Part shown: one piece after another, positions 39,066 to 39,850 of the stretch
How positions within the stretch are numbered: the first letter of the stretch is position 1
How the letters are laid out: every line of letters begins with the position of its first letter
Source of the DNA: Botryllus schlosseri
Lineage: Eukaryota
DNA: 64,000 bases
NCBI GenBank assembly: GCA_051294905.1
Contig: CM119371.1
Coordinates: forward strand, 19,470,001 to 19,534,000
Direction: 5' to 3'
The notes under the pieces: generated by a model
Databases searched by the model: none
What the model was told of the DNA's origin: nothing
The model's input: the letters and a program-made list of their open reading frames with translations, nothing else
Made by a program: the position numbers and the translations under genes

Positions 39066-39850
39066 TTATCTTGATAATGTTATTCCAATAGATGTCAGTC
39101 CGATTCCGACAAACACGAGTCCCTTCCAAACTTTATTGTAGTCGAAAGCGGTATTATCAAAGAATTCTACAAAGCCGTCCTGCAATAAAAATAGAAGCCT
39201 TAATGATCATACGGAGGAAAGTTATCGTGTCGTAGAATATAAATTGGGAACCGAATTAGAAGGTAAAGCTGAATTTCATCATCGAGAGGTGATATGGGCT
39301 CTGGAGAGCAGATACACTATATATCTCATGCTAAAGATAATTTGTAAATCCTAAGCAAGGCATGTAAATCACCCACCCATCCTCCATTTCGCACTATCCA
39401 CTTTCGTCTTTTGCTAGCAATGTAATTCCAAACTGTCTGTATGATAGCTTCTATATGCTCCCCGTGATGTTCATTCTCGTTCTTGCGAGCAAGAATGCTA
39501 CCGAGCACAAAAATGGAGACAATCCTCCCCCAGTTTTCTTTGGTATCTTTGAAAATTTCCTCAGCTATCATCAGGAACATTCGCTCATCGGGTAAATATT
39601 CTTTATATTTTTCATTGACTTCAACATCACTATAGCGGAGACGTTTGGAGACTGCGTTTAGGACTGTTCGATGTCGCTCGAACATTTCATCCCCAACTCG
39701 ACGTAAGGTTCTCTCTGCTTTCGTATTTACCTTAACGCATGAGCCATCGAGTTCGTACATGATAAAATTCCTGGTCAAGGAATATGCTTCGGATATAATT
39801 TCATCCTTCTCTTCAGTGATCGAAGGTGCTGATACTCGTGATAATTCCAT
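39066..39850 (-). CDS. MCL1-like: Bcl-2 family anti-apoptotic protein, Mcl-1-like; 2 exons, 195 aa
   Basis: Exon 1 39850-39377; 197-nt phase-0 intron GTGGGT...TTTTATTGCAG exactly at GGW|D, the conserved Bcl-2 family intron site; exon 2 39179-39066 (DGFVEFFDNTAFDYNKVWKGLVFVGIGLTSIGITLSR*). BH3 TLRRVGDEM, BH1 ENWGRIVSIF, BH2 GGWDGFVEFF, C-terminal TM anchor. Confidence 0.93.

Follow-up and report, generated by a model that had tools for sequence, protein, structure and literature searches.

A Bcl-2 gene with a retained intron is carried by Maverick/Polinton-type elements and their palindromic derivatives in Botryllus schlosseri

Introduction

A 64,000-nucleotide stretch of the Botryllus schlosseri genome (assembly GCA_051294905.1, contig CM119371.1, positions 19,470,001 to 19,534,000; hereafter the window) contains a Bcl-2/Mcl-1-like gene that has the exon-intron layout of a cellular gene and lies within a palindromic mobile element. 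The locus raises the question of where such a gene came from, by which route it entered the element and what it might do there. Classical viral Bcl-2 homologues are mostly very diverged, and the acquisition of a Bcl-2 gene by a virus is usually hidden because the viral homologues are too diverged from any host gene. A first-pass annotation of the window, made from its letters, had described an intact, intron-retaining Mcl-1-like gene captured at the DNA level by a Polinton-like element. We consider it probable that a functional-looking Mcl-1-like Bcl-2 gene, captured from the host and having a pro-survival role, is cargo of Maverick/Polinton (adintovirus-type) elements and, mostly, of their palindromic non-autonomous derivatives. 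Support is strong for the gene, for its element and for capture at the DNA level, and the anti-death function of the element gene is what we infer by analogy with its relatives.

Results

The window gene encodes a Bcl-2 family protein

The gene lies on the minus strand, and its spliced product has 195 amino acids, exactly at the coordinates of the original observation. Exon 1 (39377..39850) has 158 codons, from the ATG to ...NGGW, and encodes BH3 (LRRVGDEM, of the LxxxGD type), BH1 (NWGR, within ENWGRIV) and the first half of BH2. The intron (39180..39376; 197 nt, GTGGGT...TTGCAG, phase 0) follows the BH2 Trp codon directly, and its 3' end, up to position 39180, reads ...TTTTTATTGCAG. Exon 2 (39066..39179) encodes the second half of BH2 (DGFVEFF..., so that the whole motif reads NGGWDGFVEFF), the hydrophobic tail GLVFVGIGLTSIGITLS and the stop codon; its full translation is DGFVEFFDNTAFDYNKVWKGLVFVGIGLTSIGITLSR, which ends in ...ITLSR before the stop. 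An intron that splits BH2 after the Trp codon is at a conserved position in Bcl-2 genes. The window copy, 27 of 27 other genomic copies and the host gene L048 described below all have GT..AG directly after TGG. In addition, the related proteins P0003-P0008, which come from a HMMER search of a 1.8-billion-sequence library, continue past GGW with V-S, which is what a GT donor would give.

Exon 1 alone matches the Pfam Bcl-2 profile PF00452 over positions 1-100 of 100 (E 3e-22, 79.5 bits; cut-off 31.4), and residues N106, W107, G108, R109, W151 and W158 are invariant across a 48-sequence alignment. The AlphaFold2 model of exon 1, made with the same number of alignment rows (48), has six helices, in keeping with the family's helical bundle around a central hairpin, a predicted local distance difference test score of 84.3 and a predicted template-modelling (TM) score of 0.79. 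Foldseek placed this model with the structures of Bcl-xL, Bcl-2, A1, NRZ and Mcl-1 at probability 1.00 and TM scores of ~0.7; there were 276 PDB matches at E <= 0.001, and all listed ones are chains of the Bcl-2 family. The tail contains a 17-residue hydrophobic stretch between KVWK and R, with a mean Kyte-Doolittle hydropathy of 1.85, and is predicted from this to be a membrane anchor. From the profile, motifs, fold, tail and intron position, the product of the window gene is a Bcl-2 family member, and the intact two-exon gene with BH3, BH1, BH2 and tail that had been read from the letters is borne out by sequence, Pfam, fold and hydropathy alike.

The likeness to Mcl-1 also holds, as a likeness of sequence. 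In the PDB sequence search, 57 of the 60 listed sequences are Mcl-1 (best E 7.4e-12), with the alignment running from TLRRVGD to GGW, so that among solved structures the window protein appears closest to Mcl-1. BH2 of human MCL1 likewise reads GWDGFVEFF. In a quick tree (78 rows), the window protein stands next to the Mcl-1 clade with a support of 81 at an open fork, whereas in a careful tree (29 rows) it groups with other invertebrate proteins instead (91/85). The grouping with Mcl-1 in these trees is weak or absent, so that orthology would be at most tentative. A further difference from vertebrate MCL1 is the N-terminus: only ~40 residues precede BH3 in the window protein, and neither the element gene nor the host gene, which adds only 38 residues, has the long regulatory PEST-type region. 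The Pfam BALF1 profile matches the window protein weakly (E 7e-6, 26.3 bits; cut-off 25.8), and no close relative was found among IMG/VR viral contigs.

The gene lies in a palindromic derivative of a Maverick-type element

The element that carries the gene extends over 33007..44603 (11,597 bp) and is palindromic, with 5'-AGTAGTAAGGG at both termini and the target-site duplication CGTTCA on either side (33001..33006 and 44604..44609). Its left arm (33007..37984, plus strand) and right arm (39604..44603, minus strand) are 100% complementary except for 21 extra bases at 44372-44392 in the right arm, and the identity of the arms indicates a very recent insertion. Between the arms lies a unique centre of 1619 nt (37985..39603). 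The gene spans the border between arm and centre: the right arm contains its first 247 nt, and the centre contains the remainder of exon 1, the intron, exon 2 and ~1.08 kb of downstream sequence. Consequently, the left arm contains a mirror-image stub (37738..37984, plus strand) of these 247 nt (MELSR...) that is continued by unrelated sequence; the stub is the remnant of a second gene copy, and most relatives have two full copies. The G+C content is 0.34-0.38 over 34-44 kb and ~0.41 beside it.

A 6-bp duplication together with long terminal inverted repeats, here arms of ~5 kb, is the pattern of Polinton/Maverick elements, and 6-bp target duplications have been reported for Mavericks (PMC8097293). 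The longest open reading frame (ORF) in the window has 187 aa, and a Pfam scan of its 114 other ORFs of at least 75 aa gave none above the curated cut-off, with no family of polymerase, rve integrase, capsid, packaging ATPase or protease among them. As core genes are lacking, this is not an autonomous Polinton. The proposal that the gene sits in a Polinton-like mobile element therefore stands as to the bounded element with its 6-bp duplication but needs correction as to its kind: the window element is a palindromic, non-autonomous relative of Maverick/Polinton-type elements, without a polymerase or integrase of its own, and not a complete one.

At least 150 copies are spread over the genome

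Exon 1 was searched in six frames against the 495-Mb assembly, and 150 of the 424 first-look candidates were scored. All 150 have E <= 5.4e-78 and 79-100% identity, and 139 contain no stop within the match. These copies, at least 150 in the genome, lie on 17 chromosome-scale contigs and one small contig; 106 of the scored ones are arranged as 53 convergent plus/minus pairs with a spacing of 3.0-16.0 kb, and the other 44 have no partner within the list. In the 27 other copies inspected as whole genes, which were drawn from the best-scoring ones, exon lengths are constant to within one codon and intron lengths range from 58 to 251 nt (58, 183, 197-199 and 227-251 nt). A premature stop is absent from 26 of them and lies in the tail of L017; for four copies, the extract ends immediately upstream of the stop codon. 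On C11, C14 and C9, long mirror pairs were considered as full Mavericks and proved to be palindromic elements; those on C14 and C9 contain nested Mutator-like or reverse-transcriptase insertions. An element on C7 with 93%-identical termini is also gene-poor.

These numbers bear on the alternative that the gene is a cellular Bcl-2 paralogue like any other, placed between repeats by chance. Its normal cellular exon-intron layout was the only point in favor of this explanation, and no support was left after testing. Near-identical copies, mostly in mirror pairs and on so many contigs, the precise element ends with their 6-bp duplication and the presence of the true single-copy relative elsewhere, at L048, leave it next to no probability. 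The window gene is not a single-copy host gene in conserved synteny but mobile cargo.

The gene probably derives from a three-exon host gene

Apart from fragments, the closest protein in the library is the Styela clava 'bcl-2-like protein 2' (XP_039252627, P0002; 241 aa, 50% identity), and named Mcl-1 proteins come next at ~35% identity, with those of coelacanth, arapaima and sturgeon among the top ones. The best match of P0002 in the Botryllus genome is not an element copy (best E 1.1e-43) but L048 on C14 (G000:C14:19037185-19040688; E 1.3e-50). L048 has flanks unlike those of the elements and is single-copy apart from one decayed duplicate. This duplicate, L052 (G000:C112:3401-6800, on a 37.8-kb unplaced contig), has 87% identity, frameshifts and stops, and a ~725-nt insertion upstream. 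Both L048 and P0002 have BH3, BH1, BH2, the tail and the intron position after GGW in common with the element gene. L048 differs from it in an extra first exon: ~400 nt upstream, 38 codons beginning ATG GCT GCC GCT ACT... and ending GAA TTG|GTAAGT are in phase with the next exon, and their product (MAAATDDRSLGLGRNIF..., MAAATD...) matches the N-terminus of P0002 (tblastn E 0.002). Because this exon is in phase and conserved with P0002, L048 is a three-exon cellular gene, in which splicing from exon 1 to exon 2 is predicted from the sequence.

The comparison of L048 with the element gene reveals the route of capture. The element gene corresponds to L048 exons 2 and 3, intron 2, the tail of intron 1 and ~120 nt of 3' flank. 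At its start, the element gene reads ACC ATG GAA; the corresponding sequence of L048 is ACC AAA GAA, preceded by a strong acceptor (ccctccgttatcttgcag). The ~60 nt upstream of the element ATG (39851..39912, minus strand) are homologous to the 3' end of L048 intron 1; in the alignment, the pyrimidine tract is kept, c-aa stands in place of the acceptor cag and ATG in place of AAA, so that the new start codon lies 3 bases downstream of the old acceptor. The intron-1 remnant and the kept intron indicate that the gene was captured at the DNA level rather than retroposed, as had been suggested from the window. The absence of a long N-terminus is explained as well, because only exons 2 and 3 were captured, and a hidden upstream exon is unnecessary since the old acceptor is destroyed and the ATG follows 3 bases after it.

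The product of the element gene has 65-70% amino-acid identity with L048 and 47-52% with P0002. In the careful tree, all 12 element copies, including that of the polymerase-bearing lineage described below, form one clade (98/95), L048 is its sister (88/89), and the whole group stands beside P0002 and P0003 (100/99). The end branch of L048 is short (0.069) relative to the element clade, the stem of which measures 0.16 plus more. Between L048 and the element copies, the synonymous divergence (dS) is ~1.15 and the ratio of nonsynonymous to synonymous divergence (dN/dS) is 0.15-0.18. The phylogeny against host genes that had been asked for at the outset thus places L048 as sister to all element copies, and these sequence comparisons support a single capture of a host genomic fragment into a Maverick lineage, which then spread. 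The reverse direction, domestication of an element gene by the host, would fit the topology alone but is hard to reconcile with the N-terminal exon that a second species also has and with the intron remnant.

Gene-bearing relatives carry two kinds of cell-death regulator

The terminal 211 nt of the window element recur as plus/minus pairs 12-27 kb apart. Four such elements (on C1, C4, C13 and C9; loci L036-L045) contain a single Bcl-2 copy each, and their gene order, from the gene-near end, is a 187-aa frame, a BIR/IAP-type frame (E 3e-18), the Bcl-2 gene, a Pox_A32-type packaging ATPase (E 8e-9), two small frames, an rve integrase (E 2e-14) with a chromodomain (E 2.5e-8), three more frames, a 425-aa frame and a 155-aa frame. 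The 425-aa frame is capsid-like: its double-jelly-roll match is sub-threshold (E 0.01), 24-30% of its Atlas look-alikes carry DJR-like_dom, and a PDB sequence search with it gave nothing. No protease was identified in these relatives. Nor was a polymerase frame seen among the four, and ~4 kb of repeats lie where it might be expected; the protein-primed polymerase profile PF03175 matched nothing in this genome and nothing in the control genomes either, and is uninformative.

The ends tie these elements to the window element. A 6-bp duplication and AGTAGT termini were found in four of four elements with locatable ends, namely the window element and three others from among the four gene-bearing pairs and the gene-poor C7 pair; the termini of two of these five pairs were not located by fuzzy search. 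The window arm and the ends of the gene-bearing elements have 77-89% identity over 0.5-1.45 kb. The arm matches these relatives in two places only, the terminal 0.5-1.45 kb and the gene with ~60 nt upstream and ~120 nt downstream, and the ~3.2 kb between the two is repetitive and non-coding. The longest terminal match, the first 1.45 kb of the left arm, corresponds to the relatives' end that is far from their Bcl-2 gene. This indicates that the arm is a recombinant joining a Maverick end to this one gene.

The BIR (IAP-type) frames have 211 aa at L036:1325-1957 (minus strand), L041:4679-5311 (plus) and L042:1194-1826 (minus), and 135 aa at L054:6432-6836 (plus). With E from 3e-18 to 8e-11, they lie either close to the Bcl-2 gene or at the far end of Maverick-type elements. 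The elements thereby carry two kinds of cell-death regulator.

A second lineage has an intronless version of the gene

A second lineage (C2:2209001-2228700; L053, L033 and L054) carries a Bcl-2-like frame (E 4.8e-21), a ubiquitin-conjugating E2, a 443-aa frame, a chromodomain integrase, a 274-aa ATPase (E 1.4e-9), a 1314-aa frame and a BIR frame (E 7.6e-11), of which the integrase, chromodomain and ATPase were identified by Pfam. The 1314-aa frame contains KLCGNSAFG and YLEGDTDS, which we take to be family B polymerase motifs, ~95 residues apart, and an Exo-like NSARYD. In the fetched part of this element, there is no inverted repeat and no similarity to the window terminus, and its ends were not found. 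The Bcl-2-like frame (L053:2896-3414, plus strand) reads GGWKHFVTWYHL and then stops; after GGW it continues as KHFVTWYHL. It has no GT donor and, within 400 nt in any frame, no exon-2-like sequence, which indicates that this version has neither the intron nor the membrane tail. Directly downstream of it lies the E2 (UQ_con, E 1.6e-47; L053:3907-4377, plus strand), which is probably another captured host gene.

Selection and expression of the element gene

The dN/dS among element-borne copies is below 1, at 0.3-0.45 between lineages. For the window copy against those of the four gene-bearing elements, it is 0.32-0.40 (dS 0.26-0.30, dN 0.09-0.11; Fisher p 4e-5 for one pair), and two phylogenetically independent pairs of palindromic subfamilies, pooled, give 0.44 (Fisher p 0.005). 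Intron divergence is 0.26 and tracks dS. From these sequence divergences, the gene is under purifying selection between element lineages. Within subfamilies, dN/dS is near 1 (0.2-1.7 on few changes), and single insertions may accordingly be under drift. Constraint on the active lineage and drift after insertion are what is usually seen in transposons. Selection inside the palindromic satellites themselves is only suggested, because unsampled gene-bearing parents could sit within the palindromic clade.

In raw reads of one bulk RNA-seq run (X23; ~6% of the run read, likeness >=93%), 35 reads cover 39056-39172, 39368-39835 and 39875-39991, that is, both exons and the 5' flank, and the depth is zero in the five bins of 39173-39367, in the intron. 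Four reads break at the donor (39376) and then continue as the start of exon 2 in L021/L027-type copies. The check for junction reads across 39180-39376 that had been set thus returned reads on the exons, none in the intron and a break at the donor, and this shows splicing at GGW|D in members of the family rather than for this particular copy. Contigs of runs X1, X2 and X4 with an unspliced form were left unused, as their origin from RNA or DNA could only be guessed.

Several observations weigh against a functional, pro-survival cargo of Maverick elements. The RNA reads are few, 34 of the 35 fit in part only and are not assignable to the window copy, and the placement of the X23 reads gave no splice joint for the window subfamily. 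Fold and sequence cannot tell pro-survival from pro-death members, and BAX and BAK are also among the Foldseek matches. As to the carrier, no core genes were found in the window and no polymerase frame in the four relatives that share its termini, and the polymerase-like 1314-aa frame has no Pfam or PDB match apart from weak zinc-finger matches in the PDB. The splicing of the first host exon is a prediction, the copies inspected in full are the best-scoring ones, and the near-neutral ratios within subfamilies belong here as well.

Some of these points would fit a real but useless passenger, intact only through the youth of its insertions and with transcripts that are read-through or leaky. The perfectly matching arms of the window element, which mark a very recent insertion, the near-neutral ratios within subfamilies and the low RNA depth are all expected under this explanation, as are odd changes at conserved places: codon 142 of the window copy (39425-39427) has a private Gly to Trp change (G142W; TVWNY for TVGNY), where all 27 other copies and L048 have Gly, and in L002-L007, the closest relatives of the window copy, Tyr replaces the conserved Asp of the BH3 core (RRVGYEM, codon 54). 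We nevertheless regard a passenger as unlikely. The ratios between subfamilies are well below 1 at dS up to 0.30, where the intron diverges like synonymous sites and varies freely in length. Of the genes found in gene-bearing relatives, the palindromic elements have retained this one alone; it lies in those relatives at the opposite end from the 1.45-kb terminal stretch, which implies that it was joined to that stretch and is not a positional leftover. In addition, two different Maverick lineages have kept it.

A proposed pro-survival role

A cargo under selection may act as follows. The captured protein would be anchored in the outer mitochondrial membrane by its C-terminal tail, and its groove, with the conserved NWGR arginine, would bind the BH3 helices of host pro-death proteins. 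In this way the cell could be kept alive during replication, packaging or integration of the element, as is the case for the Bcl-2 homologues of large DNA viruses. The BIR (IAP-type) gene that adjoins the Bcl-2 gene and the E2 in the polymerase-bearing lineage fit a module that manipulates cell death.

Membership in the Bcl-2 family does not fix the sign of the activity, however, and the element product might instead be pro-death or dominant-negative (for example through an exposed BH3), part of an addiction-type module, or active in autophagy, calcium handling or mitochondrial dynamics. The missing N-terminal exon of the host protein and the missing membrane tail in the polymerase-bearing lineage would be compatible with such a change. 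The best sequence relatives, Mcl-1, NRZ/Bcl2l10, A1 and Bcl-2, are pro-survival, the neighboring gene is of the BIR/IAP type, and adintovirus homologues have been described as anti-apoptotic (PMC8502044), which makes a different activity improbable, even more so than a passenger, and leaves a pro-survival role as the preferred reading.

We also considered that the palindromic elements might be defective, satellite-like Maverick genomes that discarded all viral genes but in which a single survival gene of host origin was attached to a Maverick end and maintained by selection. This is a tentative idea that we hold to be less probable than not. If true, a non-autonomous parasite of a virus-like transposon would gain by keeping the host cell alive.

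Discussion

The Botryllus elements resemble adintoviruses, which are virus-like elements with PolB, an rve integrase, an FtsK-type ATPase and a hexon, and in which homologues of the anti-apoptotic Bcl2 and IAP have been observed (Starrett et al. 2021, PMC8502044); the supplementary maps show Bcl2 on the cavefish element and IAP on that of the wasp (PMC8502044). The adintovirus integrase is defined by a C-terminal chromodomain (preprint PMC11071296), and the integrases of the Botryllus elements have a chromodomain as well. In contrast to the present case, the adintovirus paper deals with these genes in one sentence, and the parts of it covered here contain nothing on introns, a cellular progenitor, palindromic carriers or copy number; 'tunicate' is absent from its main text, and 'tunicate' and 'Styela' from the portion of the supplement covered (PMC8502044). 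In intact vertebrate Mavericks, the eight conserved ORFs are intronless, and 'no introns were observed' (Barreat and Katzourakis 2021, PMC8097293), whereas the Botryllus cargo gene keeps its intron and most of its carriers are without any core genes. Among other mobile elements, the planarian Burro giant long terminal repeat retrotransposons have BCL2-like and BIR motifs (Arkhipova and Yushenova 2019, PMC6431247). They are alike in combining both domains, but are retrotransposons in which the domains are within a giant polyprotein and not in a separate spliced gene (PMC6431247).

Like the Bcl-2 homologues of large DNA viruses (herpesvirus BALF1/BHRF1, poxvirus N1/F1L), the element gene encodes a compact protein of the Bcl-2 fold in a virus-like genome. 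It differs from them in its 65-70% identity to a host gene, its spliceosomal intron and its canonical BH motifs. In the literature covered, which leaves most subscription journals outside its scope, we found no tunicate case, identified progenitor, intron-keeping copy or palindromic carriers, and for Bcl-2 together with Maverick or Polinton we found the Burro review only. The occurrence of Bcl-2 genes on Maverick-type viruses has been reported before. New here are the record of successive steps within a single genome and the fact that gene-poor palindromic derivatives have kept the gene.

The stages of this record are seemingly together in one genome: the three-exon host gene, the partial DNA copy with an intron fossil and a new start, the copy beside IAP-type and E2 genes, the intronless and tail-less version on the polymerase-bearing lineage, and the mass spread on gene-poor palindromes. 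If this is correct, the intronless, tail-less version would represent a later step from a cellular gene to a viral Bcl-2, in the same genome as its progenitor, and the birth of a viral death-blocker becomes directly testable. Under the satellite idea, the genome would make an anti-death protein from hundreds of mobile copies, and this might affect regeneration, stress tolerance or transmissible cell lineages. How an animal known for regeneration is affected by hundreds of transcribed copies of a survival gene is a further question posed by the record. For genome annotation, such copies will inflate the counts of Bcl-2 family genes.

Other features of the window and of related elements

Nested transposons lie inside palindromic or gene-bearing elements at L025:1-1302, at L027:7887-9998 with L028:1303-2730, and at L040:2-4066. 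They include a Mutator-like transposase (E 2.5e-47), reverse-transcriptase frames and a 1355-aa frame with DUF1759 and an integrase zinc-binding domain, which breaks the region of the capsid-like gene. Of the 31-letter words sampled from the gene region, fractions of 0.58 and 0.46 also occur in runs X15 and X18, respectively, which are labelled with two further organism codes (B and C).

The arms of the window element contain internal repeats (e.g. 34814-35076 and 36856-37118) and a mirrored 124-aa ORF without a family match (35557-35931 and 41657-42031). An inverted repeat at 44713-45343, with 280-nt arms that are 95% complementary and 71 nt apart, begins ~100 nt past the right end of the element and is probably another small foldback or miniature inverted-repeat transposable element (MITE). 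Finally, a ~263-bp repeat occurs in the window at 5299-5556 and 50422-50578 and also at L048:3018-3280, ~0.5 kb upstream of exon 1 of the host gene; with 96-99% identity over many chromosomes and 4042 first-look candidates, it looks like a young MITE.

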